The notes beneath the pieces were generated by a model. The model did not search any database. It worked only from the letters and a program-made list of their open reading frames with translations, and was not told the origin of the DNA. 47,099 nucleotides of DNA from Gammaproteobacteria bacterium (lineage in GTDB: Bacteria; Pseudomonadota; Gammaproteobacteria; GCA-001735895), in NCBI GenBank assembly GCA_052030825.1, contig JBPEYE010000029.1:1-47099 (forward strand). The letters run 5' to 3'. Both the position numbers and the translations under genes were made by a program. Positions 18,593 through 47,099 of the stretch are shown here, one piece after another; positions within the stretch are counted from its first letter, which is position 1, and the number at the start of each line of letters is the position of its first letter.

Positions 18593-19498
18593 CTACTCGC
18601 AGAGAAAGTGAATCAGGTTGGGGTCGTTGAGGTCGACTTTCTTGCCCAGGCTGATATATCCCGAGCCGAACAGCGTGAATTCCTCGCGACGCAGAAAAAT
18701 GTCCTGTCCCTCGGTGGTACGGATAAAAGTCCCGTTGGTGCTCTGATCGGTAATGATGAACTTGCCGCGGCGATGCTCGATCTTGGAGTGGTGGCGCGAA
18801 ATCAGGTCACCCTTGACAATCATCTCGCAATCCTTGCCGCGCCCGAGGATGAAGGAAGCGGTGCCGGTCGGAATTCCGGACTCGCTGCCGTTGTAGTTCA
18901 GGGTCAGGTTTTGGACCTGTTCGTGGCGCGCCGGATTGGTGAAACTGCTGGCCGTCGCCATGTTGGTCAGGTCGCCGTCCTCTTCCCAGCCGAACATGTA
19001 CACATCGAGATGCTCGTTGCGGCCCTTGACGCGGATGCGATCGTAGGGACGCATATTGTTCGACAACTCGGCACCCTTGACCATGAACGCAATCTCCTGG
19101 GTACACAGGATCTGGCGCGCCTTGGCCATGCTCGCGATCCGCGATGCGACATTGACCGTGTCGCCGAATATGTCGTCGTTTTCGAGGATTGCGCTACCGT
19201 ACTGCATTCCGATCCGGATCGAGACGCCAATGGTCTCGGGCGAGCGGTCGTCCTCCATGGTTTCCTGGATCGCGCGCGCGGCGTGGACCGCCATGTCGAC
19301 GTCGGTGAAGTAGACCAGAATCTCGTCGCCGATAGTCTTGACCAGTTGGCCGTTGTGCCGGCGCGAGATCGAGATCAGCGCGTTGAGGGCCTTCGAAATA
19401 CGCTCGCGCGCGAGTTCGTCACCCATGTTTTCGTACATGGCGGTGCTGCCGGCTACGTCGGCAAACATCACTACGCAATTGATCGTTTCTCGCGACAC
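18593..19498 (-). CDS. Class III adenylate/guanylate cyclase domain fused to a C-terminal FHA domain
   Basis: 301 aa. Cyclase motifs: VVMFADVAGST, VKTIGDEILVYF and FGDTVNVASRIAS. The FHA-like C-terminus reads FILGRGKDCEMIVKGDLISRHHSKIEHRRGKFIITDQSTNGTFI. Confidence 0.85.
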   Translation of the reverse strand: MSRETINCVVMFADVAGSTAMYENMGDELARERISKALNALISISRRHNGQLVKTIGDEILVYFTDVDMAVHAARAIQETMEDDRSPETIGVSIRIGMQYGSAILENDDIFGDTVNVASRIASMAKARQILCTQEIAFMVKGAELSNNMRPYDRIRVKGRNEHLDVYMFGWEEDGDLTNMATASSFTNPARHEQVQNLTLNYNGSESGIPTGTASFILGRGKDCEMIVKGDLISRHHSKIEHRRGKFIITDQSTNGTFIRTTEGQDIFLRREEFTLFGSGYISLGKKVDLNDPNLIHFLCE

Positions 19499-32616: not shown

Positions 32617-33408
32617 TTGTCTGGTCACGTCGCAAAAACCGAGCAGCAATCCCCAGTCAGCTTCCAAATATGTAGCAACGGTGTCACCCACACCGGCCAC
32701 GTCAGAACAAGAAACGAAGATTCGATTCTGGTGCATGCCGACGAGAACGTCTGGATCGTCGCCGACGGTATGGGCGGACATCACGCCGGCGATTTCGCGA
32801 GCCAGACGATCACCAACAACCTGAGCCTGTTCAAGCAGCACGCGTCGCTCGAAGACAACATTTTGCTGCTCGAGGAAAACATCCTCAATTCGAACTCCAT
32901 CATTCGAAAAAAATCCTTTAAACTGGGTCGCAACGCGACGATCGGCAGCACCATCGTTTGCGTTTACGTCTGGCACAACCTGATGTTCGTGCTCTGGGCG
33001 GGCGATAGCCGACTCTATCGATACAGGGACGGCAAGCTGGAACGCTTGACTGAAGACCATAGTTACGTCGAGGAACTGGTCAGAATGGGAAAAATCGAAG
33101 CGCGCGATGCCGAGGAACATCCCGCGGCGAACGTCGTGCTCAAGGCGGTCGGCATCGACGATCGCCTGTGCATGGATCTCGAATACTACGAACTCCAGGA
33201 CGGCGATATCTACGTTATCTGCTCCGACGGTCTCTACAAGGATCTGGAAGAACGGAAAATAACGCCTATTATTGAATCCCATCCGGAAGATATGAACGAG
33301 CTGTCGCAAGCCCTGCTGGCATCGGCGCTCGACGCCGGCGGAACCGACAACACGTCAATCATCACGCTGAAATCCTGCCAGAAGGTAAACGATGTCCCAG
33401 GTCTGTGA
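32617..33408 (+). CDS. PP2C-family Ser/Thr protein phosphatase
   Basis: TTG start 5 nt after GAAGGAG. Motifs: VADGMGGHHAGDFAS, GSTIV, WAGDSRLY, EDHS, ICSDGLY and GGTDNTSII. The 3' end overlaps the kinase start by 17 nt. Confidence 0.85.
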   Translation: MSGHVAKTEQQSPVSFQICSNGVTHTGHVRTRNEDSILVHADENVWIVADGMGGHHAGDFASQTITNNLSLFKQHASLEDNILLLEENILNSNSIIRKKSFKLGRNATIGSTIVCVYVWHNLMFVLWAGDSRLYRYRDGKLERLTEDHSYVEELVRMGKIEARDAEEHPAANVVLKAVGIDDRLCMDLEYYELQDGDIYVICSDGLYKDLEERKITPIIESHPEDMNELSQALLASALDAGGTDNTSIITLKSCQKVNDVPGL

Positions 33409-35368
33409 ATCGCTGATCAACGACTATCTGGCGGGCGCGCTCAACATCCACGATCTCGAGCAAGGGCTGGCCAGTCTCTTCGATGCCATGCCGCAAGGCC
33501 ACGTGCAGGCACAGACTTACCTGCAGTCGCTCTACACCAAGGACAAGATCGATTCCGACGGTTTTACCCAGATTTCGCAGGTCATTTCCAAGGTCAACAT
33601 CCAGGCGACGCTGAAAAGCAGTCCCGAGCCCGACATCTCCTATTTCGGCGACGACCGGACCATGCACCTGACCGACCTCGAGGAAGACGACAGCAACGAC
33701 AAGACCGTCATCGTCAGCGTCGGCAAGAGCGATGCCGACAGCATCGAACAGTCGCAACCCTCGCTCGACCCCCAGGACCTTGCGGCCAGCGATCCGAAAA
33801 TCATCGATAAACCGCACAAATCGAGTCGCTACGAAAACCTCGGACCGGGAGTCACGCTGAAGGAAAGGTTCGTGTTGCTTGAAAAACTCGGCCAGGGCGG
33901 CATGGGCGTGGTGTTCAAGGCCAAGGATCTGCTCAAGGTCGAGGCCAAGGACAAGGATCCCTACGTCGCGATCAAGGTGCTGACCGATGCTTTCAAAAAG
34001 TACTCGGGTTCGTTTATCGCGCTGCAGCGCGAAGCCAGCAAGGCGCAACGCCTGGCGCACCCGAATGTTGCGACCGTCTACGACTTCGACCGCGACGGCA
34101 ACACGGTCTTCATGACCATGGAGTTCCTGCAGGGCAAGCCGCTCAATCAGCTGATCAAGGAAATCTCGAAAAAGCCGCTGAAAATGGACCATGCCCTGCA
34201 TATCATCGACGAGCTTTGCAGCGGCCTGGCCTATGCGCACGAAAAGCAGCTCATCCATTCCGATTTCAAGCCGGGCAACTGTTTTCTGCTCAATGACGGC
34301 CACGTAAAGCTGCTCGATTTCGGCATTGCGCGCGCCAGCACCGCGCCCGACGAGGAGCGCGAAGCGACGATGTTCGACCCGGCCAAGCTCAGCGCGGTAA
34401 CGCCGGCCTACGCGACGCCGGAAATGTTTGCCGGCATGAACCCCGACCCGCGCGACGATATCTACGGTCTCGCCTGCGTCGCTTACCAGTTGCTCGCCGG
34501 CGGCAAACACCCCTATAACAAGGTCGCTTCGCCGAAAATCAAGGAACTCGGAATCAAGCCGAAACCGATCAAGGGGCTCAACCGGCGCCAGCAGAAGACC
34601 CTGATGAAGGCCCTGTCGGTCGTCCGCGAAGACCGCATCGACAGCGTCGCCAAGTTTGCCGAAGGCATGCGCGTGCGGAAATCGCACAGCAAGACGATCC
34701 TGCTCGGTTTCCTGTTTCTGCTGATTATCGGCGCCGGCATCGGCTACAGACCGTTCATGGCCTTCCAGGCCGAGCAGGCGCTGTACGACAAGATTCAGCG
34801 CATCAAGAACGGCGACAAGGCGCTGATGATCGAAACCATCTGGGGCCTCGACCAGATGGATGCCGAGCAGCAGAAAATCATCTCGGTCGGGCTGCGGCGC
34901 GAGATCATCACCTTTTACCGCGATCGGATTCGTTCGGTCTTTCTGCCCAAGGAAGGCCTCTACGATTACCCGCAGGCGCAAAGCCTGCTGGCCCAGGCCA
35001 AGCGCCACTATCCCGATTCGGTCGCGCTGTCGACCATCGAGGACCAGGTCAAGGAACAGCGCGATCGGCTGATGACGAGCCTGATCTCGCTCTACAAGCG
35101 ATATCTCGCCGAGAAAAAGCTGATCAAAACCCCGAGTGGCGAGGACTTGACGACCGTCATTCCGCTGATCAAGCGGGTCGATCCCAAGCACTACCTGCTG
35201 AAGGACAAGGAGCTTGCCGACCTCTACTTGTCCGAGGCGGAAAAGCTGATTGCCCGGCGGCAGTATGGCGAAGCCTCCAACTACATCGTCACCGGGCTCA
35301 AGATTTTTCCTGAAGACACCCGCTTGCAGAGCCTCAACAAGCAAATCAACGCGCAGAAGCTCGAGTGA
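33392..35368 (+). CDS. Hanks-type Ser/Thr protein kinase, non-RD, with one TM helix and a helical/TPR-like C-terminal domain
   Basis: 658 aa. Motifs: GQGGMGVVFKA, VAIKVL, catalytic loop IHSDFKPGN (HSD at 34256-34264, not HRD), LLDFGIA and TPAYATPEM. TM helix ILLGFLFLLIIGAGIGY, followed by about 200 aa of helical sequence. Confidence 0.9.
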   Translation: MSQVCESLINDYLAGALNIHDLEQGLASLFDAMPQGHVQAQTYLQSLYTKDKIDSDGFTQISQVISKVNIQATLKSSPEPDISYFGDDRTMHLTDLEEDDSNDKTVIVSVGKSDADSIEQSQPSLDPQDLAASDPKIIDKPHKSSRYENLGPGVTLKERFVLLEKLGQGGMGVVFKAKDLLKVEAKDKDPYVAIKVLTDAFKKYSGSFIALQREASKAQRLAHPNVATVYDFDRDGNTVFMTMEFLQGKPLNQLIKEISKKPLKMDHALHIIDELCSGLAYAHEKQLIHSDFKPGNCFLLNDGHVKLLDFGIARASTAPDEEREATMFDPAKLSAVTPAYATPEMFAGMNPDPRDDIYGLACVAYQLLAGGKHPYNKVASPKIKELGIKPKPIKGLNRRQQKTLMKALSVVREDRIDSVAKFAEGMRVRKSHSKTILLGFLFLLIIGAGIGYRPFMAFQAEQALYDKIQRIKNGDKALMIETIWGLDQMDAEQQKIISVGLRREIITFYRDRIRSVFLPKEGLYDYPQAQSLLAQAKRHYPDSVALSTIEDQVKEQRDRLMTSLISLYKRYLAEKKLIKTPSGEDLTTVIPLIKRVDPKHYLLKDKELADLYLSEAEKLIARRQYGEASNYIVTGLKIFPEDTRLQSLNKQINAQKLE

Positions 35369-35640
35369 TGGAACAGCACGGCACCCCGCTGCGAGTCCTG
35401 GCCAAGACCTACGCCAACGATCTGATTTCGCGCGAACAATACGTCGAAATACGCTCGCAGTTGCTCAAGAAGCTGCAAACCAAGGGCCGCATCGACGAAT
35501 CCGACCTGAAAAATTTCACCGCCATCACGCGCGAAACCGAGGCGCCGCGGGTGCGCAAGTCCTACACCTCGTCTGACTGGATCATCATCGCCCTGGGCCT
35601 GGCCGCATCGGCGGTGCTCGCCTTCGTCCTGTACGGCTGA
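35368..35640 (+). CDS. SHOCT-like, C-terminally anchored small membrane protein (hypothetical)
   Basis: The ATG overlaps the kinase TGA (GTGATGG). LAKTYANDLISREQYVEIRSQLLKKL resembles the SHOCT motif. C-terminal TM helix WIIIALGLAASAVLAFVLY. Confidence 0.5.
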   Translation: MEQHGTPLRVLAKTYANDLISREQYVEIRSQLLKKLQTKGRIDESDLKNFTAITRETEAPRVRKSYTSSDWIIIALGLAASAVLAFVLYG

Positions 35641-35728
35641 TCGAGCGCCATCGGGCGTCAAAAATAAGTCACAATAACGCTGCCGCGGTGCCCGTGCAGC
35701 GGATTTTTGGGTTGAATACGCCTCAAAC

Positions 35729-35752
35729 TAAGTTATTATCATCAATAACTTA
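35729..35752. promoter_or_regulatory. Perfect 9-6-9 inverted repeat in an AT-rich island upstream of lapE (candidate operator)
   Basis: TAAGTTATT-atcatc-AATAACTTA, inside the AT-rich stretch 35715-35782. It is followed by AACTTAACTT. Confidence 0.4.
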
Positions 35753-35903
35753 ACACTAAAACTTAACTTTATTTATTAAAAGCCAACCGGCGCTGCCGTA
35801 ATTTGCCAGAAATGTTAGGCAAGTCTCCGTCCGCCGGTTTGCCGGACGGTAGGCTCGACGGCGCAAGATTCGGCAATTGCCGGAAGGTCGACAACTCCAT
35901 CGA

Positions 35904-38084
35904 ATGGGAACGGGAATGATCGCAGGTAACGGTCGCGGCTCGATATTGGCGCAATGGACCACGGGAATGATCCTGTGGCTCGGCTCGCTATTGCCCGCCG
36001 CCGCGCTCGACATGACCGACATGCTCGTCGATTCGATCAGCGCGCATCCCGAGGTCAAGGAAAAAATCCACGTCTATCGACAGGCGGTCGGCGATCAGCG
36101 AATCGCGGAGAGCGGCTGGCGCCCGAGCGTCGATATCGAGGCCTCGACCGGGACTTTCGATACCGACTCGCCGGCGACCGGCAACACCTCGGTCGACTAC
36201 GAAAGTTCGGTGGTTGAACTGTCGGTGACGCAAAACCTGTTCAATGGCTTTGACACGACGTTTCAGCTCGAGCAAACCAGCGCACGCGCGCGCGCGGCGC
36301 TGTTCGACATTTACGATACCGCGGACAACATCGCGCTGCGGGCGGTCCAGGCCTATCTCGACGTCCTCAAGCAGCGGCGATTGCTGCAGCTGGCCCAGGA
36401 AAACGTCGACGCGCACGAAGAAATTCTCTCCCGGATTCGGGAACGCAACCTGTCGGGCGTCGGTCGACGCTCGCAGCTGCAGCAGACCGAGGGGCGTCTC
36501 GCGCGCGCGCAGGCCAGCCTCGTCGCGCAGCAAAACAATCTCGAGGACGCGGCGACCCGACTGCACGAAGTGCTCGGCCGTTACGTCGATCCGCTCGCAA
36601 TGTCGGCACCGACCCTGCCGCGCCTGCCGGACGCCGATCTCGATACCCTGATCGACCAGGCGCTGGCCAGTCATCCGGCCATGCAGGTGGCCGAGAGCAA
36701 CGTGCTCGCCGCGCAGGCGGATCACCGCCGTTCGTTGCGGACCCGTTATCCCACGGTCGACCTGCGCCTCGCCACCGAACACGGCGACGATATCGGCGGC
36801 CTGCCGGGCAACACCGACGAGACCAGCCTCGTGCTCAATTTCAGCTACAACCTGTATCGCGGCGGGCGCGACCAGGCCGAGCAGCAGAAAAGCATCAGCG
36901 CCGTGTTCGAGCAGAAGGAATTCGCCGCGCGCGTGCGCCGCCAGGTCATCAACACGTTGCGCCTCGCCTGGATCGCGGACACCTCTTTGTCGCGCCAGCT
37001 CGGTTTTCTCGAGACCCACGTGCTCAAGTCCGGCCAGACGGTCGAATCCTATAAAGAGGAATTTTTTATCGGCCAGCGCGATCTGATCGACTTGCTCGAC
37101 GCCGAAAACGAACTCAACAGCGCCAAAAACCAGTTCGCCGAAGCGCGTTTCGATGCGCTGGCGGCGCGATTTCGGGTCTACGAAGGCGTCGGCCAGCTGT
37201 TCGACGCGACCGGCGTCGACTTCGAACTCGGCGATGGGCGCCTGCGGGTCGCACGCCTGGACAGTAACGGTGTCGACCGGCTGCCGATACCGGTCGACGA
37301 GGACGCCGACCGGGAACGCGACCCGATGGATCACTGCGACAATTCGCTGCGCGGCGTCGACGTCAATCCGTTCGGCTGCCTCGAGCCGGTCGAAATCAGC
37401 GTGGTCGCACCGCCGGCGCCACCGCAGAATTCGCCGCCGGAACTCGGCGACGACCAGTTTGAAATCGACACCAACGGCATCCTGGTCCTCACGCCGCAGC
37501 AGCTGCTTGCCAACGATAGCGACGCCGACGGCGATCGTCTCGAGATCGTCGACGTCAGCCAGCCCGAAACCGGGCGTCTCGCGTTCAACCAGAACAGTAA
37601 CCTGGTCTACCGCCCGCTCGAAGGATTCATCGGCGTCGATTCGTTCAAATACACGGTAGCCGACAATCGCGGCGCCTCGGCGACGGCGACCGCAACGGTG
37701 CGCATCAACGTCCGCGAGCCGAAGGTCGTCAGCCTCGACAAAACCCAGCTGGTCAACTTCGAGTACGACGAAGCCGAATTGACCGCGGTATCGAAGGCCA
37801 AGGTTGCCCGCATCATCGAGCGCATCAAACAGGCCGGCGACGTGCAAATCGAAATCTACACCTATACCGACAATATCGGCTCCGATGCCTACAACCTTGC
37901 GCTGTCGCAGCGGCGCGCCGAGGCGCTGCGCAATTTACTGATCCAAAATGGCATCGACCCCGCCGCGATCATCGCAATCGCGATGGGCGAGCAGCAGCCG
38001 ATTGCCGATAACTCGACCGAATCCGGACAGGCGATCAACCGGCGCGGCGAGTTCGTCTTTCGCGCCAGCACGGGGACAGAGTAA
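35904..38084 (+). CDS. lapE: TolC-family T1SS outer-membrane channel (LapE/AggA-like) fused to TSP3-like, cadherin-like and OmpA C-terminal domains
   Basis: 735-aa track ORF from TTG 35877. The ATGs at 35904, 35916 and 35967 are all possible starts and the signal region is unclear. About 430 aa are TolC-like with two repeats (SVDIEASTG...LFNGF...; VDLRLATEHG...NLYRGGRD...). These are followed by DEDADRERDPMDHCDNSLRGVDVNPFGC, then LLANDSDADGDRLEIVDVSQPETGRLAFN...VDSFKYTVADNRGASATATATVRINV, then OmpA_C (IEIYTYTDNIGSDAYNLALSQRRAEALRNLL...INRRGEFVF). Confidence 0.85.
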   Translation: MGTGMIAGNGRGSILAQWTTGMILWLGSLLPAAALDMTDMLVDSISAHPEVKEKIHVYRQAVGDQRIAESGWRPSVDIEASTGTFDTDSPATGNTSVDYESSVVELSVTQNLFNGFDTTFQLEQTSARARAALFDIYDTADNIALRAVQAYLDVLKQRRLLQLAQENVDAHEEILSRIRERNLSGVGRRSQLQQTEGRLARAQASLVAQQNNLEDAATRLHEVLGRYVDPLAMSAPTLPRLPDADLDTLIDQALASHPAMQVAESNVLAAQADHRRSLRTRYPTVDLRLATEHGDDIGGLPGNTDETSLVLNFSYNLYRGGRDQAEQQKSISAVFEQKEFAARVRRQVINTLRLAWIADTSLSRQLGFLETHVLKSGQTVESYKEEFFIGQRDLIDLLDAENELNSAKNQFAEARFDALAARFRVYEGVGQLFDATGVDFELGDGRLRVARLDSNGVDRLPIPVDEDADRERDPMDHCDNSLRGVDVNPFGCLEPVEISVVAPPAPPQNSPPELGDDQFEIDTNGILVLTPQQLLANDSDADGDRLEIVDVSQPETGRLAFNQNSNLVYRPLEGFIGVDSFKYTVADNRGASATATATVRINVREPKVVSLDKTQLVNFEYDEAELTAVSKAKVARIIERIKQAGDVQIEIYTYTDNIGSDAYNLALSQRRAEALRNLLIQNGIDPAAIIAIAMGEQQPIADNSTESGQAINRRGEFVFRASTGTE

Positions 38085-38247
38085 AGCCGGCGCGAGTTTT
38101 ATCAATTGGACTAAACTTGGAGGCAGATGCGGTCGATTGGTAGTCCCCCCTGAACAACCGAATTCCAAGTGCCCTGTTCCGCTCCAGGTTCGCCCGGCGT
38201 ACCGGTCATTTTGAAACCGGCCCGAGCCGCTGCGGAAAGCACGTTTC

Positions 38248-38901
38248 GTGAAGCGGGCGTTCGTCAAGATGGGCGCCCTGCTCGCGCTCAGCATGCCAGG
38301 CAGTCACCACGCAGATCCGTTGATCAGTGAAGATATGTTAGCCCACCTCAACAACCGCTATTCCAGCCAGGCTTACGAACGCGGGCTCGCGGTCAATCGC
38401 CTGCTCGAGCAACTCGAGGGCCGCGATGTCCGGACCCAGCTGGTCGAGGTCAACCGGTTTTTCAATCGCTTTCGCTACCGCGAGGATCATCTTCACTGGG
38501 GACAACAGGACTACTGGGCAACGCCCACCGAGTTCATCGGCACCCACCAGGGGGATTGCGAAGATTTCGTCATCGCCAAGTATTTTGCGCTGCGCAAGAT
38601 CGGCGTACCCGACGAGCGCCTGTACCTGACCTACGTCAAGGCGCTGCGGCAAAACGTCGCGCACATGGTTTTGAGCTACTTTGAAAATCCGAACAGCGTG
38701 CCGTTGATCCTCGATAACTATAATCCCGAGATCCTGCGCGCGACCGAGCGACAGGATCTTCTGCCGGTCTACAGCTTCAATGCCAGATCATTGTTCCTGA
38801 CCAATGCCTCGGCGGGCCTCGGGCGATCGCTGCCCACCGACAAGATCAAGAACAGCAAGTGGCGCAAGCTGCTCGAAGACATTCGCAAGGAACAACCATG
38901 A
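38248..38901 (+). CDS. lapG: LapG-type periplasmic transglutaminase-like cysteine protease (BTLCP, MEROPS C93)
   Basis: GTG start with a signal-like N-terminus. Motifs: YWATPTEFIGTHQGDCEDFVIAKYFALRKIGVPDERLYLTYV (Cys codon 38557-38559), VAHMVLSYF (His), PLILDN (Asp) and LLPVYSFN. Confidence 0.9.
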   Translation: MKRAFVKMGALLALSMPGSHHADPLISEDMLAHLNNRYSSQAYERGLAVNRLLEQLEGRDVRTQLVEVNRFFNRFRYREDHLHWGQQDYWATPTEFIGTHQGDCEDFVIAKYFALRKIGVPDERLYLTYVKALRQNVAHMVLSYFENPNSVPLILDNYNPEILRATERQDLLPVYSFNARSLFLTNASAGLGRSLPTDKIKNSKWRKLLEDIRKEQP

Positions 38902-40823
38902 CCCTGTTCAAACAGATTGCATTACTGGTTTCGATCGTGTTCCTGCTGCTGCTTGCGATCATCGTGGTCAACGATTTGCGGCGCGCGAGCGAATTTCAGC
39001 AGGGCCAGTTGCAAACCACCGCGCAGGACATGGCGACCACGCTCGGCATCGCCATCAGCAACCTGCCACAGGGCAACGACCCGTCAACGCTCGAAGTCCT
39101 GTTCAACGCCGTTTTCGACAGCGGCTATTACACGCGCATCGAACTGGTCGGTACCGACGGCCAGACGATCCACGGCAAGCGCCAGCAAATCGATCTCGAA
39201 CAGGTGCCCGCCTGGTTCGTCGAAACGGTGCCGCTCGACAGTGCCCAGGGTACGACCCGCGTCATGCAGGGCTGGACCCAGCTCGGCGAATTGCGTCTCG
39301 AGTTACACCCGGGTTTCGTTTATCGCGGCCTCTACGAGGGCCTGCTGACGACGCTGCAGAGCTTCGCGTTGCTGTTCGCGGGATCGATACTGGTCCTCTG
39401 GCTGTTGCTGCGTTTCGTGCTCGAACCGCTGCAGCGAGTCAAGGAACAGGCCGATGCAATCCACGCCAACCGCTTCGTTCAACAGGAAAAGATCCCGGCC
39501 ACGGTCGAGCTCAAGCGCGTCGTCGAGGCGATGAACCTGATGGTGACCAAGGTCAAGAGCATCTTCGACGACCAGGAAGCGACGCTGGCGCAGTACCAGC
39601 AAGTACTCTATCGCGACAAGTTGACGAATCTCGGCAACCGCCGTTACCTGCTGGATCAGTTGCAGCAGTCGATGTCCGAGGAATCCGGGCTGCATGGCAG
39701 CATGGCGATCATCAAAATCGGCGATTACGAACACCTGCGCGACCACCAGGGATACGAAATAGCCGACAATCTCGCGCGTATCATCGCCGACTTGTTGCGC
39801 CAGCAGCACGCCGGTATCGAAGCCGAGCGCGCATCGCGCTTCAACGACGACGAGTTCGCTTTTCTGAGCATGGCAGACGAAGTCGCAGTCAGTGACTATA
39901 CGCGCGCCCTGTTCGACGCCTTTGCGGGCCTGGCCGAGCGCGACCCGGCACTTCGCGACGTATCGCTGCATGCCGGAATCTGCACCCTCGAGACCGGGGG
40001 CGAGATCGGCAAGGTGCTCGCCGCTATCGACTACTGCCTGTCGCAAGCCGCGACCCGGGGTCCGTTCGCGATCGAGCGCAAACCGAGCACCGGAATTGAT
40101 CTACCCGAGGGCAAGATGCAGTGGCGCGCCTGGCTCGAGGCGGTGCTCGAATCGAACCAGCTGTTTCTCGTCGGCCAGCTTGCGCTCGGCGACGAAGCTC
40201 GGCCGTACCAGCGCGAACTGTTCGTGCGCGCCCGCAACGCCAAAAACCAGGTGGTGCCCGCATCGGTCTTCATGCCGATGGCAGCGAGTCTCGGCATGTC
40301 GCTGGACATCGACCGCGAGGTTTTTCGCCTGGTCGCGGCCAACAAGACGCTCGACGCCGAAGTGCCGCTGGCAATCAACCTCAGTGCCGCGTTTTTCGAG
40401 CTGGCCGAAGCGCAGGAGGATTTCGACCAGCTCCTGTTCGCCTGCGAACAATCCAATCGCCGGCTCTGCATCGAAGCCAGCCATCCGATCCTGCAGCAGC
40501 ACCCGCTGATGTGCGGCAAGATTTCGGAGCGGGTGCGACGCCACCAGCATCGCTTTGGCATCGACAACCTCGATCTCGGGCTATCGCTGCAGCTGCTGCA
40601 GTCCGGGCAGTTCGACTACGTCAAGATCAATGCGCAGACGCTGCACGCGATGGGCGAGGACGACGCGGCCGCTGGCTTCCAGGCGCTCAAGACGATCACG
40701 GATACGCTGGAGATCGACATCGTGGCGGTCGGCGTCGACTCGCAGGAAGTCTTCGAACGCCTGCGGGCGCTCGGTATCGACATCATGCAGGGTAATTTTC
40801 TCGATTCCCCGGAGCCGATCTAG
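38898..40823 (+). CDS. lapD: LapD-type inner-membrane c-di-GMP receptor (periplasmic LapD_N domain-HAMP-degenerate GGDEF-degenerate EAL)
   Basis: ATG 38898 overlaps the lapG stop (ATGA). TM1 is IALLVSIVFLLLLAIIVV. The periplasmic domain carries GWTQ (39270-39281). TM2 is followed by a HAMP domain. The GGDEF position reads RFNDDEF (39843-39857). The EAL position reads ELF (40215-40223), with IEASH, IDNLDLG and KIN replacing the catalytic EXTE, DDFGTG and KID motifs. Confidence 0.9.
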   Translation: MTLFKQIALLVSIVFLLLLAIIVVNDLRRASEFQQGQLQTTAQDMATTLGIAISNLPQGNDPSTLEVLFNAVFDSGYYTRIELVGTDGQTIHGKRQQIDLEQVPAWFVETVPLDSAQGTTRVMQGWTQLGELRLELHPGFVYRGLYEGLLTTLQSFALLFAGSILVLWLLLRFVLEPLQRVKEQADAIHANRFVQQEKIPATVELKRVVEAMNLMVTKVKSIFDDQEATLAQYQQVLYRDKLTNLGNRRYLLDQLQQSMSEESGLHGSMAIIKIGDYEHLRDHQGYEIADNLARIIADLLRQQHAGIEAERASRFNDDEFAFLSMADEVAVSDYTRALFDAFAGLAERDPALRDVSLHAGICTLETGGEIGKVLAAIDYCLSQAATRGPFAIERKPSTGIDLPEGKMQWRAWLEAVLESNQLFLVGQLALGDEARPYQRELFVRARNAKNQVVPASVFMPMAASLGMSLDIDREVFRLVAANKTLDAEVPLAINLSAAFFELAEAQEDFDQLLFACEQSNRRLCIEASHPILQQHPLMCGKISERVRRHQHRFGIDNLDLGLSLQLLQSGQFDYVKINAQTLHAMGEDDAAAGFQALKTITDTLEIDIVAVGVDSQEVFERLRALGIDIMQGNFLDSPEPI

Positions 40824-40955
40824 CCGAGTTTAAACGCCGAAGATGACTGCCTGTAACTTCAAACTTACGCCATCCGCGCGCGCTCGCATCGCGACCGTTT
40901 GTCACGGCCGCGACGCTCCGCCGCGGATGCGGTTTTTCCTTTCCCGGGTTCCTTC

Positions 40956-43106
40956 ATGATCGATCCGCACCATCAATACGATCCGCTGCTCGAGTGCCTG
41001 GTGATCTTCGCCAAGATCCATAACCGCCCGATCAGCGTCGAAGCCCTGATCGCGGGTCTACCGGTCGAGCCGGGCGCCGACGGACCGGAGCTGTTCAGCA
41101 TCGACAAGCCCAAGGGACTGTTCTCGCGCGTCGCCGCGCGGGCCGGCTTCGCGAGTCGCCTGATTCGGCGTGACCTGAACAGTCTGTCGCGACTGTTGCT
41201 GCCCTGTATCCTCGTCCTGCGCAACGGCAATGCCTGCATCCTCGAAAGTCTCGATCGCAAGCAGCGTCGTGCCAAGGTGATCTTCCCCGAGGTCGGTGAG
41301 GGCGAGGAGTGGCTCGACTTCGAAACGCTCAAGCGCGAGTACCTCGGCTACGCCTTTCTGCTCAAGCGCGAACTGCAGCAGCAAACCCAGAGTCGCGAGC
41401 CGCTGGCGCTCGATTCGAGCCACTGGTTCTGGGGCACGCTGCGCAAATCCCGCGAGATATTCGCCAGCGTGCTGTTGTCGTCGATCCTGATCAACCTGTT
41501 CGTGCTGGCGACGCCGATGTTCACGATGAACGTCTACGACAAGGTCGTGCCCAACGACGCGATCGAAACGCTGTGGGTACTGGCTGCCGGTATCGTCACC
41601 GTATATGCTTTTGACACGGTGCTGCGCTTCGTGCGCAACTACCTGCTCGAGATTGCCGGCAAGAAGAGCGACGTGATCATGTCGTCGCTGCTGTTCTCGC
41701 AGGTACTGAACCTCAAGATGTCGCAATGGCCGCAGAGCGTCGGCGCCTTCGCGAGCCAGCTGCGCGATTTCGAGAGTATCCGCAATTTCTTTACCGCAAC
41801 CACGATGGCGACGCTGGTCGACCTGCCCTTCGCGATTATTTTCCTGTTGGTGATCTACTACATCGGCGGGCCGATGATCGCGGTGCCGCTGATCGTCATC
41901 GCCTTCCTGCTGGCCTACAGCCTGATTCTCGCCAAACCGCTCAAGCAAAGCATCGAGGCAACCTACGAGGCGAGCGCGGCAAAGAACGCTCAGCTGATCG
42001 AAACCCTGCACACGATCAAGACGATCAAGACGCTCGGTGCCGCCAATTACGCGCAATGGGTCTGGGAAGAATCCTCGGGCACGATCGCCGATCGGTCGAT
42101 GCGCGCGCGCACGCTGTCGGCTTCGATCCTGGTGGTCACGAACCTGCTGGTACAGCTCAACACCGTCGGCCTGATCATTTTCGGAATTTACCGCATCAGC
42201 GATCTCGAACTCAGCCTCGGCGGGTTGATCGCCATTGTCATGCTGGCGTCGCGCGCGGTCGCGCCGATGGGCCAGATCGCCGGCCTGATCACGAGCTTCG
42301 AGCAAACCCGCACCGCCTATCGCGCCCTCGACGGCATCATGCAGCAGGAAACCGAGCGGCCGGAGGGCACGTCCTACGTCCGCCGCGCGGCCTTCGAGGG
42401 CGCCATCGAATTCCGCCATGTCGATTTCAGTTATCCCGAGTCGCCGAAAAAATCGCTCGCCGACGTCGGTTTCAGTATCCAGCCCGGAGAACACGTGGGC
42501 ATCATCGGCAAGGTCGGCTCGGGCAAGAGCACGCTGGTCAAGCTCATCATCGGGCTTTACCAGGCTGAAGGCGGTTCGATTTCGATCGACCATATCGACA
42601 TCAACCAGATCGACCCGGCCGACCTGCGCCGTCACGTCGGCTACCTGTCCCAGGATGTCGAGCTGCTGCGCGGCACGATTCGCGACAACCTCGCCTACAA
42701 GGATCTGCACGTCAACGATGAGCGGCTGCTGCAGGCCGCGCGAATCAGCGGCGTCGACCTGTTCGTCAACCGGCTGCCGCAGGGTTTCGACACCCAGATC
42801 GGCGAACAGGGCGCGCTGCTGTCCGGTGGACAGCGCCAGGCGATTGCGCTCGGCCGCGCGGTGTTGCTGAACGAGCCAATCCTGATTCTCGACGAGCCGA
42901 CCAACAGCTTCGACAATACGACGGAATCGGTTGTCAAGCAGCGCCTGTTCGACTATACCCGCGACAAGACCCTGTTGCTGGTCACGCACAAGGCGCCGAT
43001 GCTCGATCTGGTCGAGCGCCTGCTCGTCATCGACGACGGCAAGCTGGTCATGGACGGTCCCAAGGCCGACGTGCTGAACGCGCTCAAAGGTACGCAGAAT
43101 GCATAG
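40956..43106 (+). CDS. lapB: Type I secretion ABC transporter (LapB/LssB-type, N-terminal C39-like domain)
   Basis: ATG 40956 (MIDPHHQYDPLLECLVIFAKIHNRPISVEALIAGLP, a C39-like domain). Six-TM region. Walker A GKVGSGKST, signature LSGGQRQ, Walker B ILILDEPT. Confidence 0.9.
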   Translation: MIDPHHQYDPLLECLVIFAKIHNRPISVEALIAGLPVEPGADGPELFSIDKPKGLFSRVAARAGFASRLIRRDLNSLSRLLLPCILVLRNGNACILESLDRKQRRAKVIFPEVGEGEEWLDFETLKREYLGYAFLLKRELQQQTQSREPLALDSSHWFWGTLRKSREIFASVLLSSILINLFVLATPMFTMNVYDKVVPNDAIETLWVLAAGIVTVYAFDTVLRFVRNYLLEIAGKKSDVIMSSLLFSQVLNLKMSQWPQSVGAFASQLRDFESIRNFFTATTMATLVDLPFAIIFLLVIYYIGGPMIAVPLIVIAFLLAYSLILAKPLKQSIEATYEASAAKNAQLIETLHTIKTIKTLGAANYAQWVWEESSGTIADRSMRARTLSASILVVTNLLVQLNTVGLIIFGIYRISDLELSLGGLIAIVMLASRAVAPMGQIAGLITSFEQTRTAYRALDGIMQQETERPEGTSYVRRAAFEGAIEFRHVDFSYPESPKKSLADVGFSIQPGEHVGIIGKVGSGKSTLVKLIIGLYQAEGGSISIDHIDINQIDPADLRRHVGYLSQDVELLRGTIRDNLAYKDLHVNDERLLQAARISGVDLFVNRLPQGFDTQIGEQGALLSGGQRQAIALGRAVLLNEPILILDEPTNSFDNTTESVVKQRLFDYTRDKTLLLVTHKAPMLDLVERLLVIDDGKLVMDGPKADVLNALKGTQNA

Positions 43107-44469
43107 CGACAACGAAGACCGAACCGACTTCGAAGACACGACGCAGATCGGGGCGCACGGCAAGCAGGATCTCGTTTATATGCGCAGCCTGTCGGCGGCG
43201 GTGGTTCACCGCACGCCGCGTCACCTGATCACCGTCGTCGCGATTCTGGCAATCTTCGTCATCGCGGCGATCGTATGGATGAACTGGGCGAAGATCGATG
43301 TCGTCATCCGGGGCGCCGGCAAGGTCACTCCGGCCAGCCAGGTGCAGAATATCCAGAGTCTCGAGGGTGGCATCGTCGAGGATATCCTCGTCGCCGAGGG
43401 CGAAGTCGTCGACGTCGGTCAACCGCTGCTCAAGATCAGCGACGTCGCCTTTTCGAGCTCGTTCGAGGAAAATCGCCTGCTCTACCTCGAGTTGCTGGCA
43501 CGCGCGAGCCGCCTGAACGCCGAAGCCTTCGACCGTGATTTCGAGCCTCACCCCGAGATACAGCGCGAAGCGCCGGCGCTGCTGCGGTCGGAAAAAAGCC
43601 TCTACGAATCCAATCACCAGCAACTGAAGGAAACGCTCGGCATTCTCGAGGAAAAGATCAACCAGCAGCAGAGCGCGCTGCGCGAGGCGCAGTCGAAGCA
43701 GCGCCAGCTGCGCAGATCGCTCGAACTCGTGCAAAAGGAAATCGAGATCAAGAAGCCGCTGAAGGATCGCGGCATTATCAGCGAAGTCGAGTTTCTGCAA
43801 TTGCAGCAGCGCGAAGCCGAATTCGAGGGCGAGCTCGATGCCGTCAGCCTGTCGATCCCGCGCATCGAGTCGACCATCGAGGAGGCCCGGCTCGCGCGGC
43901 TAAAAGAAAGCCTCGATTTCCAGAACAAGGCGAAAAAAGAGCTCAACGAGGTCAACGCGGAGATTGGTCGTATCCGCGAGGCGCAGACCGCATTGCAGGA
44001 TCGCGTTCGGCGCACGACGCTGCGCTCGCCGGTCAGGGGCGTCGTACAGCGCCTCTACGTCAATACCATCGGCGGCGTCATCAATCCGGGTGGCAATATC
44101 GTCGACATCGTGCCACAGGAAGATTCGCTGCTGGTCGAGGTGCGGATTCAACCGGCTGATATCGGCCACATTCACGTCGGCCAGTTCGCCCGGCTCAAGT
44201 TCTCGGCCTACGATTTCGCGATCCACGGCAGTCTGCAGGGTATCGTCACCTTCGTCAGCGCCGATACCATTACCAACGAAGACGGCGAGAGCTACTTTCT
44301 CGTGCGCGTCAAGCCCAACCGGCTCTATCTCGGCAGCCAGTCCGACGAATTGCCGATCAGGGTCGGCATGACCGCCGAGGCCGACATCATCACCGATAAG
44401 AAAACCATCCTGTCCTATCTCACCGAGCCGGTTCATCGCGGCATCGACAAGGCCCTGCGGGAACGCTGA
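43099..44469 (+). CDS. lapC: HlyD-family type I secretion periplasmic adaptor (LapC-like)
   Basis: 456 aa; overlaps lapB by 8 nt. N-terminal TM helix LITVVAILAIFVIAAIVW, a long coiled coil (QQLKETLGILEEKINQQQSALREAQSKQRQLRRSLELVQKE...), and the C-terminal motif PIRVGMTAEADIITDKKTILSYL. Confidence 0.9.
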   Translation: MHSDNEDRTDFEDTTQIGAHGKQDLVYMRSLSAAVVHRTPRHLITVVAILAIFVIAAIVWMNWAKIDVVIRGAGKVTPASQVQNIQSLEGGIVEDILVAEGEVVDVGQPLLKISDVAFSSSFEENRLLYLELLARASRLNAEAFDRDFEPHPEIQREAPALLRSEKSLYESNHQQLKETLGILEEKINQQQSALREAQSKQRQLRRSLELVQKEIEIKKPLKDRGIISEVEFLQLQQREAEFEGELDAVSLSIPRIESTIEEARLARLKESLDFQNKAKKELNEVNAEIGRIREAQTALQDRVRRTTLRSPVRGVVQRLYVNTIGGVINPGGNIVDIVPQEDSLLVEVRIQPADIGHIHVGQFARLKFSAYDFAIHGSLQGIVTFVSADTITNEDGESYFLVRVKPNRLYLGSQSDELPIRVGMTAEADIITDKKTILSYLTEPVHRGIDKALRER

Positions 44470-45071
44470 TGCGGCTGGTCGTCTACACCGCCCTCCCCGA
44501 CTTCGAGCGCTTCCTCGGCGATCATCTCGATTTGCCGTTCGATTCGCATCCGCAGCTCGGGTCGCCGGACGAAGATCCCGGGTGCATTCACCTGTTACAC
44601 CTGTCAGGCATGGCCGATGCCTGCTACGAGTGGATGCAGCAATACCTTCCCGGCCAGCCGACCCGGGTCGCGCTCTGCTCGGACCGACCCAACCTGCAGG
44701 AAATGCTCGAAGGCGTGCGTCTCGGTGCTCGCGCTTACTGCAACAGCTACATGGCGGCAAACCACTATTACCAGATGCTGCAACTCGTCGAAAGCGGTCA
44801 AAGCTGGTTTCCACCGCAACTGCTCGAGCAAACCTTTGTGCTCGCCCGGCAGGCGGCCGCACGCCCGAAATTCGACCTCAACGCCCTCGCGGACCTGACC
44901 GCTCGCGAGCGTGAAATCGCGCTCGCGGTCGGCGACGGCAAGTCGAATCGCGAGATCGCACAGCAGTTCGAAATCACCGAGCCGACGGTCAAGACGCACC
45001 TCGGTAACATCTTCCGTAAACTCGATCTCAAGGACCGGATCGGTCTCGTTTTGCTGCTCAAACAGAGCTGA
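44469..45071 (+). CDS. LuxR/CsgD/VpsT-family transcription regulator with a pseudo-receiver N-terminal domain
   Basis: The ATG overlaps the lapC TGA by 1 nt. C-terminal HTH: LTAREREIALAVGDGKSNREIAQQFEITEPTVKTHLGNIFRKLDL. The N-terminal domain is collinear with REC but lacks the acidic pair (VVYTAL). His44 sits at the phospho-Asp position (IHLLHLSGM) and there is no conserved Lys (AYCNSYM). Confidence 0.8.
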   Translation: MRLVVYTALPDFERFLGDHLDLPFDSHPQLGSPDEDPGCIHLLHLSGMADACYEWMQQYLPGQPTRVALCSDRPNLQEMLEGVRLGARAYCNSYMAANHYYQMLQLVESGQSWFPPQLLEQTFVLARQAAARPKFDLNALADLTAREREIALAVGDGKSNREIAQQFEITEPTVKTHLGNIFRKLDLKDRIGLVLLLKQS

Positions 45072-45158
45072 AATGCGAACCATTTCCGGTGTCGATGTGA
45101 CCCGGATCTCAAAGCGCTGAAAAACCCGATTTCGTCTACGACCATGGTATGAGACACC

Positions 45159-45197
45159 GGTCCGAATTCTGACCTATATAAGCGGTTCGAATTCGAA
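45159..45197. promoter_or_regulatory. Two GAATTC-centred palindromes flanking a TATATAA box upstream of the adhesin gene
   Basis: GGTCCGAATTCTGACC (45159-45174, 14 of 16 positions symmetric), then TATATAAG, then TTCGAATTCGAA (45186-45197, a perfect 12-bp palindrome). The region ends 13 nt before the ATG at 45211. Confidence 0.3.
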
Positions 45198-45210
45198 AAT
45201 TGGCGCGATC

Positions 45211-47099
45211 ATGGCAACGAAAAGCATCGGTTATGTCGTTGAATTATCTGGCGAAGCACAGGTTCGTTCGGTCGACGGGATCATTCGCGTACTGAGCGTC
45301 GGAGACCCGGTACACGAGGGCGATCTGCTAATCACCGGGGTCAATTCACGCATCGTCGTCGAGTTCTTCGACGGCGCGAAACTGCCGCTCGGTGAAAACG
45401 CCGAGGTGCTGCTCGACGAAACGGTTTTCGCCAGCCAGGTCGCGTTTCCGGACGATCGCGTCGCCCAATTGGCCGAGCTTCAAAGCCTGATCGTCGAGGG
45501 CATCGACCTCGCCGAACTCGAAGCCACGGCGGCCGGCGCGGCGCCGGTATTTGCCGACGGCCTGCACCAGGCCTCGATCTACGATCGCGACGGTGACGAA
45601 GGGATCGTCGAGACGCGGCTGACGTCGTTCGGCGTGACCGATTCGGGACAAAGCGGATTCACGACCCTCGACGACGACAATGCCTTGCTCGCCTCCGATT
45701 CGACCGATTCGGGCACGGCGTCGCCGACGATCACGCTTCCGGTAGCGACGATCAGCGTCGATCCGATTACCGCCGACGACATCCTTAATGCCGCCGAGTC
45801 GGGCGGTGTCGTCAACGTGACCGGTTCGGTGAGTGGCGCCGCATCGACCGGCGACGCCATCGATTTCACGGTTAACGGGACGCCCTATTCCGGCGTGGTC
45901 AACGCCGGCAACGTCTTCAGTATCCCGGTTGCCGGCGCGGATCTGGCAGCCGACACCAGTTTCGACGCGTCGGTCAGTGGACTCGACGGATCCGGCAACC
46001 CGTTCGTCGCGATTACCACCTCGACCCACCTGGTCGATACCACCGCAACGGCAACGATCACGCTCGACCCTGATATCACGGCTGACGACATCATAAGCGC
46101 GGCCGAGGCCGGGAGCACCATCGCGATCACCGGCTCGGTTGCCGGTGATTTCCAGGCTGGCGATACGGTCACGCTGACCGTCAACGGCGTCAACACCAGC
46201 GGCGCGGTCGCGGCCGACGGCAGTTTCAGCATTGACGTGCAAGGCAGCGACCTGCGTGACGATCCCGATAGCACCATTGACGCGTCGTTCGTCGCAACCG
46301 ACGCGGCAGGCAACGTGGGCGCAGCGGTTACCGACAGCGAATCCTACTCCGTCGACGTTACCCCGCCGACCGCATCGATCGCGCTGGACCCGAACATCAC
46401 CGCCGACGACATCATCAACGCCGCCGAGGAAGGCGCCAACGTCGCGATAACCGGAACCGTCGGCGGCGACGTTGTCGATGGCGACACGGTTACCCTCACG
46501 ATAAACGGCAACACCTTCACTGGCGCCGTCAACGGCGGCGGATTCAGCATCGACGTGCCCGGTACCGAGCTCACCGCAGATGCGGACCTGACAATCGATG
46601 CCAGCGTCACGACGTCGACCGGCGACGTCAACGGCGAGGCAACCGCGACCGACAGCGAGACCTATTCGGTCGACACCACGGCGAATGCGACGATCACGCT
46701 CGACGCCAATATCACTGCCGATGACATCATCAACGCCGCCGAATCCGGCGGCCCGGTTGCCATTACCGGCACGGTTGCCGGTGATTTCCAGGCGGGTGAC
46801 ATCGTTACCCTGACGGTCAACGGCGTCGACAGTACGGGGGCCGTCGCTGCCGACGGCAGCTTCTCGATCAATGTTGCGGGCAGCGATCTGGCCAACGACC
46901 CCGATCAGACGATCGATGCGTCGTTCGTTGCGACCGACGCGGTCGGCAACGTTGCCGCGCCGGTCACCGATACCGAGTCCTATACGGTCGATACGACGGC
47001 CATCGCTACCATTACGCTCGATGCCAACATCACCGCCGACGACATCATCAACGCCGCTGAAGCGGGTGGCCCGGTTGCGATCACCGGCTCGGTGGCCGG
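45211..47099 (+). CDS. lapA: LapA-like giant repeat adhesin / T1SS substrate, 5' part only (runs off window)
   Basis: The frame is open from ATG 45211 to the window end (629 codons), so it is absent from the ORF track. N-terminal retention-module sequence: [43 protein letters not shown]...[17 protein letters not shown] matches the P. fluorescens LapA cleavage region. Tandem Ig-like repeats follow. Confidence 0.9.
45526..45537 (+). other. LapG-type cleavage motif T-A-A-G (residues 106-109 of the adhesin)
   Basis: acg gcg gcc ggc in frame, in the context [13 protein letters not shown]. The P. fluorescens LapA site is TAAG with cleavage between Ala108 and Ala109. Confidence 0.7.
45745..47099 (+). 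repeat. In-frame tandem repeats of 309-321 bp (103-107 aa) encoding Ig-like adhesin modules
   Basis: The anchor GCYGAYGAC (ADD in [11 protein letters not shown]) recurs at 45772, 46081, 46402, 46717 and 47035, giving periods of 309, 321, 315 and 318 bp. Unit consensus: [103 protein letters not shown]. Confidence 0.9.

Follow-up and report, generated by a model that had tools for sequence, protein, structure and literature searches.

The stretch of DNA considered here (the window) is the whole of a contig of 47099 nucleotides (nt), JBPEYE010000029.1 of the assembly GCA_052030825.1, which comes from a gammaproteobacterium of the lineage GCA-001735895. Positions 35904-47099 hold seven co-directional open reading frames (ORFs) on the + strand, encoding a TolC-type channel, LapG, LapD, an ABC exporter, a HlyD adaptor, a LuxR-type regulator and the 5' part of an adhesin. 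These genes are predicted to form a Lap-type adhesin system, in which a type I secretion system (T1SS) is gated by LapD and LapG; the prediction is well supported, with profile hidden Markov models, alignments to solved structures and conserved synteny in agreement. In the Lap paradigm of Pseudomonas fluorescens, an N-terminal module retains the adhesin in LapE, LapG cuts a di-alanine site and LapD bound to cyclic di-GMP (c-di-GMP) sequesters LapG (bioRxiv 10.1101/198937; PMC6890996).

The first gene, the tolC-like lapE, occupies 35904-38084 from an ATG start, with a TTG start possible at 35877. It is followed on the same strand by lapG (38248-38901), lapD (38898-40823), the ABC exporter gene lapB (40956-43106), the HlyD adaptor gene lapC (43099-44469), the gene of the LuxR-type regulator (44469-45071) and the lapA-like adhesin gene. 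The latter begins with the ATG at 45211 and runs for 629 codons with no stop to the contig end at 47099, which cuts it within the repeats. The longest ORF of lapB starts at TTG 40899; the downstream ATG 40956, yielding a protein of 716 amino acids (aa), is most likely the true start, since the orthologues are 716-717 aa long. The families of all seven proteins were assigned with curated Pfam and NCBIfam profiles. Four curated cut-offs for specific T1SS subfamilies and one for the retention module were exceeded. A preliminary description of this DNA had named the same seven co-directional components, and both the ORFs and the profiles confirmed them; the LapG (BTLCP), LapD N-terminal and T1SS families, for which it had proposed a profile search, were all matched. 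Judged by these profiles, the annotation of the seven genes is right and robust. The coupling of the genes, called tight, is so only in part: lapG and lapD join at ATGA, lapB and lapC overlap by 8 nt and lapC meets the regulator gene at TGATG, but gaps of 163 nt, about 75-130 nt and 139 nt separate lapE from lapG, lapD from lapB and the regulator gene from the adhesin gene.

The dedicated T1SS set is complete in the locus and consists of an LssB/LapB-type ABC exporter, a HlyD adaptor and a TolC-type channel. LapB scored 891.6 bits with the LssB profile TIGR03375 (cut-off 693) and 428 bits with the HlyB profile TIGR01846, which is under the cut-off of that profile; its best match in the PDB was HlyB 7SGR (E 5.5e-88). 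The exporter had been described as carrying a C39-like domain. The LssB type was upheld, and the N-terminal domain is C39-like and non-catalytic, with a Pfam C39 score of 17.4 bits that stays below the 22-bit cut-off. LapC is a T1SS periplasmic adaptor of the HlyD family, matched over its full length by TIGR01843 with 395.7 bits (cut-off 208.65). The TolC part of LapE covers residues ~34-439 and reached 276.6 bits with TIGR01844 (cut-off 225.15).

After the TolC part, LapE continues with a linker that has a Cys-x-Cys motif, one cadherin-like/Big_9 domain (residues 509-602) and an OmpA-like peptidoglycan-binding domain (619-713). The domains OEP, Big_9, Cadherin_5 and OmpA all lie above the Pfam cut-offs. 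The OmpA-like domain (aa 619-713) scored 75.5 bits with PF00691 (cut-off 27.2), and the signature TD..GS..YN..LS..RA...NRR is readable in the sequence as YTDNIGSDAYNLALSQRRA...NRR. The C-terminus of TolC-family proteins is periplasmic, so the extension should sit in the periplasm, where an OmpA-like domain would bind peptidoglycan. It probably anchors the channel to the peptidoglycan within the same polypeptide, a role that a separate OmpA-like protein has in the bpf system of Shewanella. The Big_9/cadherin-like domain (window positions 37428-37709) has 29-40% identity to the extender repeats of thousands of giant adhesins, and 34% to a repeat in the adhesin of a relative (locus L005 below). 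This resemblance suggests the recruitment of an adhesin-type domain into the channel protein. A search of a 1.84-billion-protein library with the extension (aa 473-726), meant to show how often the OmpA part is fused and how often it stands alone, had giant adhesins with many cadherin/Big_9 repeats for all of its best 150 matches, and these gave no such frequencies.

LapG belongs to the family of periplasmic calcium-dependent transglutaminase-like cysteine proteases (BTLCP) and has an N-terminal signal peptide. It matched PF06035 (Peptidase_C93) with 54 bits (cut-off 27) and the LapG profile NF045674 with E 6e-58 over profile positions 33-215 of 221. Alignment to Legionella pneumophila LapG 4FGO gave E 1.5e-44, and alignment to LapG in the LapD complex, 4U65_E, gave E 2.5e-41. 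The motifs GDCEDF, AHMVL and LILD(n/s) are in register with both structures, the third being LILDN in the window, so that the contexts of the Cys, His and Asp of the triad are conserved; the contexts DCEDF, AHMVL and LDN listed earlier for the protease, as well as the adhesin TAAG, are all present.

LapD, a predicted c-di-GMP receptor of the inner membrane, consists of a transmembrane (TM) helix, a LapD/MoxY periplasmic domain, a second TM helix, a degenerate GGDEF domain (NDDEF) and a degenerate EAL domain (ELF). The profile PF16448 (LapD_MoxY_N) gave 112 bits, and GGDEF and EAL were also detected. The protein aligns to NF045673 from end to end, residues 1-640 falling on positions 1-646 of 647 (E 3e-89). 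In an alignment with the LapD output domains 4U64 and 3PJV, its periplasmic domain keeps the LapG-binding Trp loop GW-x-Q (here GWTQ), and the cytoplasmic module aligns to P. fluorescens LapD 3PJW. NDDEF of the window protein takes the place of RGGEF in P. fluorescens LapD, and ELF the place of KVL. When LapD is compared with active EAL enzymes, DDFG is changed to DNLD, KID to KIN, EGVE to VGVD and E-TE to EASH. Several metal and catalytic positions are thereby replaced, as they are in P. fluorescens LapD 3PJW. Judged by these residues, the cytoplasmic module is of the receptor type and catalytically dead.

The adhesin begins with a retention module (aa ~1-105), which is followed by the LapG site TAAG (aa 106-109) and about five Ca2+-stabilised extender repeats of ~100 aa with an immunoglobulin (Ig)-like fold. 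The retention_LapA profile NF033682 matched aa 6-116 with 59.9 bits (cut-off 50), and Ig_like_ice matched five stretches of the repeats (E 3e-91). Tandem Repeats Finder detected no DNA-level array in the adhesin gene, the repeats being visible at the protein level only. Residues 5-152 align to the RI N-domain of MpIBP, 5IX9, a nuclear magnetic resonance structure (E 3.7e-9), and residues 178-594 to the MpIBP RII tetra-tandemer of Ca2+-dependent Ig domains, 4P99 (E 1e-66). The RI N-domain has been proposed to be the plug of TolC (PMC5550230). The published motif of the LapG site is [T/A/P]AA[G/V] (bioRxiv 10.1101/198937), and TAAG fits it.

The sixth gene encodes a protein with a GerE/LuxR helix-turn-helix (HTH; 58.5 bits in Pfam), in which no match to Pfam Response_reg was found. 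Its AlphaFold2 model, built with 29 homologues (mean predicted local distance difference test score, pLDDT, 90.1), has a (beta-alpha)5 receiver-like fold and an HTH. The top Foldseek matches were VraR, LiaR, VpsT, FixJ, NarL, RcsB and the CsgD receiver. The protein shares the receiver fold and the LuxR-type HTH with canonical response regulators and lacks their phospho-acceptor Asp, acidic pair and Lys. The phospho-acceptor position at the end of beta3 is taken by His44, which is invariant and lies in the motif LLH(L/I)S; Y-T/S stands in place of the acidic pair after beta1, and C-N-S is found at the position of the conserved Lys after beta5. In the family, His44, YCNS and W(F/Y)PP are invariant or nearly so.

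Such a protein could be a c-di-GMP-binding factor of the VpsT/CsgD type, in which case c-di-GMP would control the system twice, acting on transcription through the regulator and on surface retention through LapD. The structural matches include VpsT (3KLN/3KLO) and the CsgD receiver domain (5XP0), and the regulator aligns to VpsT across the motif region, with Trp113 falling on the Trp of the c-di-GMP-binding motif W[F/L/M][T/S]R. Genes of this type also adjoin T1SS matrix-protein operons in Vibrio, namely brpT-cabABC (PMC6978666) and cpsQ-mfpABC (PMC5552913). The motif itself is nevertheless absent: W-F-P-P of the regulator is aligned to W-L-T-R of VpsT, all 29 close homologues have WFPP and the distant ones have W(F/Y)PP, so that both the Thr/Ser and the Arg are missing. 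In the NarL family, the linker helix ordinarily begins with such a ..P pattern. Response regulators of the VraR/LiaR type match at least as well as VpsT. VpsT-like sensing of c-di-GMP was rejected on the missing motif and is considered improbable. Judged by the residues and the modelled fold, the regulator is an aspartate-less protein of the NarL/FixJ fold and not a VpsT-type c-di-GMP sensor.

The operon has relatives in metagenomes. Four loci found through adhesin homologues (L003-L006) have an identical order of genes (Hanks-type kinase, 90-aa ORF, TolC/OmpA, LapG, LapD, ABC, HlyD, LuxR, adhesin), and their proteins share 58-82% identity with those of the window. In a fifth, L007, the same operon lies behind holA. 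A scan of the GTDB species representatives with the regulator alignment gave 26 loci, all in metagenome-assembled genomes (MAGs) of uncultured marine Gammaproteobacteria, including bins labelled Thiotrichales, Kangiellaceae, Oleiphilus and Litorivivens. The locus most similar to that of the window, L009 of the MAG Ww580 (JAHEKJ010000100.1), has 79-93% identity. The earlier suggestion that the locus is probably unstudied in this lineage is reasonable, every close relative being an uncultured MAG. In a tblastn survey, the full order E(OmpA)-G-D-B-C-R-A was seen wherever 10 kb upstream were available, down to 36-46% identity of the regulator, and lapC precedes the regulator gene in all loci that reach upstream of it, L022 alone excepted. 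A retention-module adhesin comes after the regulator in every locus whose contig continues, except L026 and L032; no adhesin follows the regulator in the latter. The fusion of TolC to OmpA is kept in every syntenic locus that reaches lapE. Profiles and synteny thus bear out two features pointed out beforehand, the multi-domain LapE and the extra LuxR-type regulator.

Some loci depart from this arrangement. In L026 (JAIBDO010000009.1, 1-13078) the kinase block, TolC/OmpA, ABC, HlyD and the regulator are present, lapG and lapD are missing between TolC and ABC, and ddl, not an adhesin gene, lies 1.7 kb downstream of the regulator; the operon seems to have been reduced or to have decayed there. 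In L022 (JAACFA010000161.1, 816-7519), the orthologous regulator, the TACGAC element described below and a retention-module gene (738 aa, apparently complete) sit not behind a T1SS, but behind a gene of a PapD_N-like chaperone and an 890-aa gene with SdrD_B domains. L008 (ERZ25039541 contig_64161, 648-21854), from the same habitat, has the adhesin first, a plain 620-aa TolC without the OmpA fusion, two unknown ORFs, LapG and LapD. Its differing layout indicates that more than one type of Lap operon coexists in these sediments.

The order E-G-D-B-C-regulator-A had been regarded as unusual, in contrast with a P. fluorescens layout in which lapA lapE, lapBC and lapGD lie apart. Neither point is sustained. 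The lap genes of strain Pf0-1 lie close together (PMC6890996); lapA, G, D, E, B and C are drawn as one cluster (PMC4523816 Fig. 1A). The synteny comparison proposed with Pf0-1 and Shewanella finds clusters known in both, and the claim about order does not survive it. Among the 26 species-level MAG loci, every contig of sufficient length shows the window order, and sub-orders of it have published precedents. Gene order at the locus is therefore not odd: precedents exist for each of the apparent extras, and the arrangement as a whole recurs as an operon type among marine Gammaproteobacteria.

P. fluorescens Pf0-1 and the window share all six functional components of LapABCDEG, clustered in both, with a retention-module adhesin of the repeats-in-toxin (RTX) type, an LssB-type exporter, a BTLCP LapG and a degenerate GGDEF-EAL LapD with the periplasmic Trp loop. 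They differ in the order and orientation of the genes, in the cadherin-like/OmpA-like extension of the window LapE, in the NarL-fold regulator gene between lapC and lapA and in the MpIBP RII-type adhesin repeats of the window; its LapG and LapD are only distantly related to those of Pf0-1. The Shewanella operon, bpfA-aggC-aggB-aggA-OmpA-like-bpfG-bpfD, is a single seven-gene cluster (PMC3672883). Deletion of its OmpA-like gene SO4321, located between aggA (TolC) and bpfG, impairs biofilm formation (PMC4523816). As in the window, the seven genes are co-directional, and the block TolC, OmpA-like, LapG, LapD stands in the same order. Unlike the window, where the OmpA-like part is fused to TolC through a cadherin-like domain, Shewanella encodes it by a separate gene; the adhesin and the ABC and membrane fusion protein genes precede TolC there and follow LapD here, and no LuxR-type regulator is embedded in the Shewanella operon.

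The artA locus of Achromobacter xylosoxidans, compared by its published gene map, is drawn as tolC-hyp-hlyB-hlyD-luxR-artA-BTLCP-EAL (PMC9430717 Fig. 5). It resembles the window in having ABC, HlyD, luxR and an RTX adhesin with a di-alanine site, along with BTLCP and EAL genes; however, lapG and lapD are downstream of the adhesin there, and a TolC-OmpA fusion is not reported. A search of a plasmid database with the regulator returned mostly generic NarL-type matches, and one record alone was informative, an unannotated one of Halomonas sp. PA16-9. It holds a TolC-LapB-LapC-LuxR-LapA core with a regulator that is likewise aspartate-less, but has no OmpA extension and no lapGD in between. MpIBP of Marinomonas primoryensis provides the closest solved structures for the adhesin, the plug domain 5IX9 and the ~104-aa Ca2+-dependent Ig-like extenders 4P99; the first 629 residues, which are all that the window holds of its adhesin, show no sign of an ice-binding domain. 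The Vibrio loci brpT-cabABC and cpsQ-mfpABC offer a looser analogy, in which the gene of a LuxR/CsgD/VpsT-family regulator is linked to a T1SS and a secreted Ca2+-binding biofilm protein (PMC6978666, PMC5552913); BrpT binds directly upstream of cabA (PMC6978666). The regulators there are homologues of VpsT, whereas that of the window has WFPP and no receiver Asp, and the substrates are small matrix proteins, not LapG-gated adhesins with a retention module.

Several observations weigh against a Lap-type system at the locus. LapG reached 195.6 bits and LapD 300 bits with the NCBIfam equivalog profiles NF045674 and NF045673, both below the cut-offs (320 and 1020, respectively), so the proteins are to be called LapG-like and LapD-like and are not close orthologues of the Pseudomonas proteins. 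The operon of L026 lacks lapG, lapD and the adhesin gene, which means that the module can decay or rearrange. The C-terminal RTX repeats and T1SS signal of the adhesin lie outside the window and were recovered for no close relative, as the contigs of the relatives are likewise cut within the repeats. Homologues of the adhesin N-terminus were all partial proteins (≤368 aa), most of them on short contigs. An exact-protein look-up of the window regulator returned only two Logan contigs, both <2 kb, and the beginning of the 4423-aa L003 adhesin, used as a query, retrieved only proteins of at most 700 aa, the target not being among them. No RTX repeats were found by a regex scan of L003, L007 and L008. 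The sole complete adhesin obtained, of 1718 aa, is that of the more distant syntenic relative L030. It comprises a retention module, a PAAG site, cadherin repeats, a VWA domain, RTX nonapeptides (HemolysinCabind, E 3e-10) and a typical acidic/hydrophobic C-terminus. A C-terminal T1SS signal and RTX repeats had been set beforehand as a test; both are found in the L030 adhesin, and the window contig ends before that region.

Frame shifts were noted in two long-read ENA contigs. One splits the adhesin of L003 (10001-10615) into 188 aa and 4423 aa and the other splits lapD of L007 (3853-5785) into 351 aa and 300 aa; they are more likely assembly errors than pseudogenes.

The low equivalog scores could also mean that the adhesin is retained but not regulated by LapG, as is the case with PA1874 of P. 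aeruginosa, or that LapD is an enzyme (a phosphodiesterase or a cyclase) and not a receptor. The EAL Glu, which LapD keeps in ELF where P. fluorescens has KVL, points the same way. The adhesin site, however, is the canonical TAAG and not the degenerate AAAIG (bioRxiv 10.1101/198937), and lapG and lapD are translationally coupled inside the operon. An enzymatic LapD is further opposed by NDDEF at the GGDEF position and by the replacement of at least four catalytic or metal positions of EAL, and the LapG-binding Trp loop of LapD is conserved. Taken together, the two versions are regarded as highly improbable, and a Lap-type gate with LapG as the protease and LapD as the receptor is preferred.

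Two conserved non-coding elements accompany the operon. Upstream of tolC (lapE), a promoter scan predicted a sigma-70-type promoter on the + strand with TTGAAT at 35712-35717, a 16-nt spacer and TATTAT at 35734-35739, which was the only match in the 10 kb scanned. It is overlapped by a perfect 8-6-8 palindrome, AAGTTATT-ATCATC-AATAACTT (35730-35751), a candidate operator. The window and 10 of the 12 close-clade loci checked each have a single copy of the palindrome core TTATTATC(A/T)TCAAT(A/G)A, placed 170-178 nt before tolC. Overall it was found at 16 loci (three of them on duplicate contigs) and nowhere else in 454 kb. The second element, TACGACCATGGTATGAG, has the form TACGAC-N5-TAYGAN (TACGAC-N5-TATGAG in the window) and lies at 45137-45153 on the + strand, 74 nt upstream of the adhesin ATG; it is followed by the conserved CCTATATA. 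Each of 16 close-clade loci, the window and two loci of Thiotrichales MAGs has it a single time and in this position. Elsewhere in the 454 kb there are only two other matches, and the match in the 47-kb window is a single one. More distant loci have GTAC-containing repeats at the position of this element. Judged by their conservation and placement, both elements are good candidates for an operator or a promoter, and the co-inherited regulator would be the obvious candidate to bind them.

An 8-mer, AGGTCACA, is shared by the regions upstream of tolC (35653-35665, forward) and of the adhesin gene (45096-45104, reverse, TGTGACCT) and is conserved in the window and L003-L005. It could be a half-site or a coincidence. 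As a common operator of tolC and the adhesin it was set aside, being only one short shared word.

Upstream of tolC, on the + strand, lie the genes of a PP2C phosphatase (32617-33408) and of a 658-aa Hanks-type Ser/Thr kinase (33392-35368), which has one TM helix and an extracytoplasmic C-terminal domain of ~220 aa, and a 90-aa ORF for a tail-anchored membrane protein (start at 35365 or 35368, end at 35640). The three are translationally coupled. The G+C content of this block (32617-35640) is 0.56-0.58, below the window average of ~0.63. All close-clade loci that extend far enough have the kinase gene and the 90-aa ORF immediately before tolC and on its strand, with 71-91% identity of the small ORF; the PP2C gene is beyond all fetched flanks except that of L026, where it is present.

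The kinase block might belong to the system, for instance by phosphorylating the regulator on Ser/Thr and so coupling an envelope signal to adhesin expression. The adjacency across the close clade, the regulator without a canonical Asp to be phosphorylated and the topology of the kinase, with its TM helix and extracytoplasmic domain, are all compatible with this. In distant loci, however, the same operon and regulator have other upstream neighbours, holA (L007) or aspartokinase (L027 and L030); between the block and tolC lies an AT-rich promoter region of ~260 nt; conservation in one clade may reflect common descent only; and L026 keeps the kinase block though lapGD and the adhesin are gone. 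Membership of the block in the system is therefore thought unlikely. As an obligatory part it was rejected, being absent from the distant syntenic loci, and it is regarded as a neighbour, with a lesser chance that a regulatory link exists in this clade only. The remainder of the window is ordinary chromosome with glyA, ribD, ribBA, thiL, gltX, aconitase and other genes. No gene of a diguanylate cyclase or phosphodiesterase was found near the locus in the gene content of the window. A gene at 18593-19498 on the - strand, at a distance of 14 kb from that of the kinase, encodes a fusion of a class III adenylate/guanylate cyclase domain and an FHA (phospho-Thr-binding) domain; it may be another piece of Ser/Thr-phosphorylation signalling.

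The locus very probably works by the Lap-type mechanism and serves an uncultured marine gammaproteobacterium as a surface adhesion module. Confidence stops short of full because the C-terminus of the adhesin is beyond the contig end and the divergent LapG-like and LapD-like proteins are known from sequence alone. Each step of the following scheme is derived from homology and synteny. LapB, LapC and LapE would export the giant Ca2+-stabilised Ig-repeat adhesin with its C-terminus first. The retention module would be unable to pass LapE, and the adhesin would stay threaded through the channel and displayed on the cell. Periplasmic LapG could then set the adhesin free by a cut at the di-alanine site TAAG, which directly follows the retention module. 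LapD with its dead GGDEF and EAL domains, when bound to cytoplasmic c-di-GMP, would capture LapG by means of the periplasmic domain and its conserved Trp loop. The cell would thus be attached at high c-di-GMP, and the adhesin would be released at low c-di-GMP. The dedicated NarL-fold regulator with its non-phosphorylatable receiver probably controls the adhesin's own promoter through TACGAC-N5-TATGAG.

It may tentatively be suggested, with more doubt than belief, that this operon family adds two layers to the Lap paradigm: a regulator whose signal is not aspartyl phosphate and which drives the adhesin promoter through TACGAC-N5-TAYGAN, and a LapE covalently fused to its peptidoglycan anchor. 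If so, the regulator pocket with the invariant His and Cys-Asn-Ser might sense a metal, redox state, a small ligand or Ser/Thr phosphorylation by the Hanks kinase/PP2C pair, and the pull exerted on a megadalton adhesin would be taken up by the cell wall instead of the outer membrane.

The understanding of the Lap mechanism is unchanged by the locus. What is mildly new is the combination of the LapE-cadherin-OmpA fusion, the family of aspartate-less regulators (His/Cys-Asn-Ser, WFPP) and the two conserved cis elements in a lineage without a cultured representative. A recurrent operon subtype is thereby defined, consisting of the LapE-OmpA fusion, lapGD, lapBC, the Asp-less regulator, the adhesin and two candidate cis elements. 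It is of modest practical value and can be used as a test case for the transcriptional control of RTX adhesins or for the mechanical anchoring of a TolC-type channel. For the bacteria themselves, it would extend the Lap "inside-out" c-di-GMP switch into uncultured marine-sediment Gammaproteobacteria known only from MAGs.

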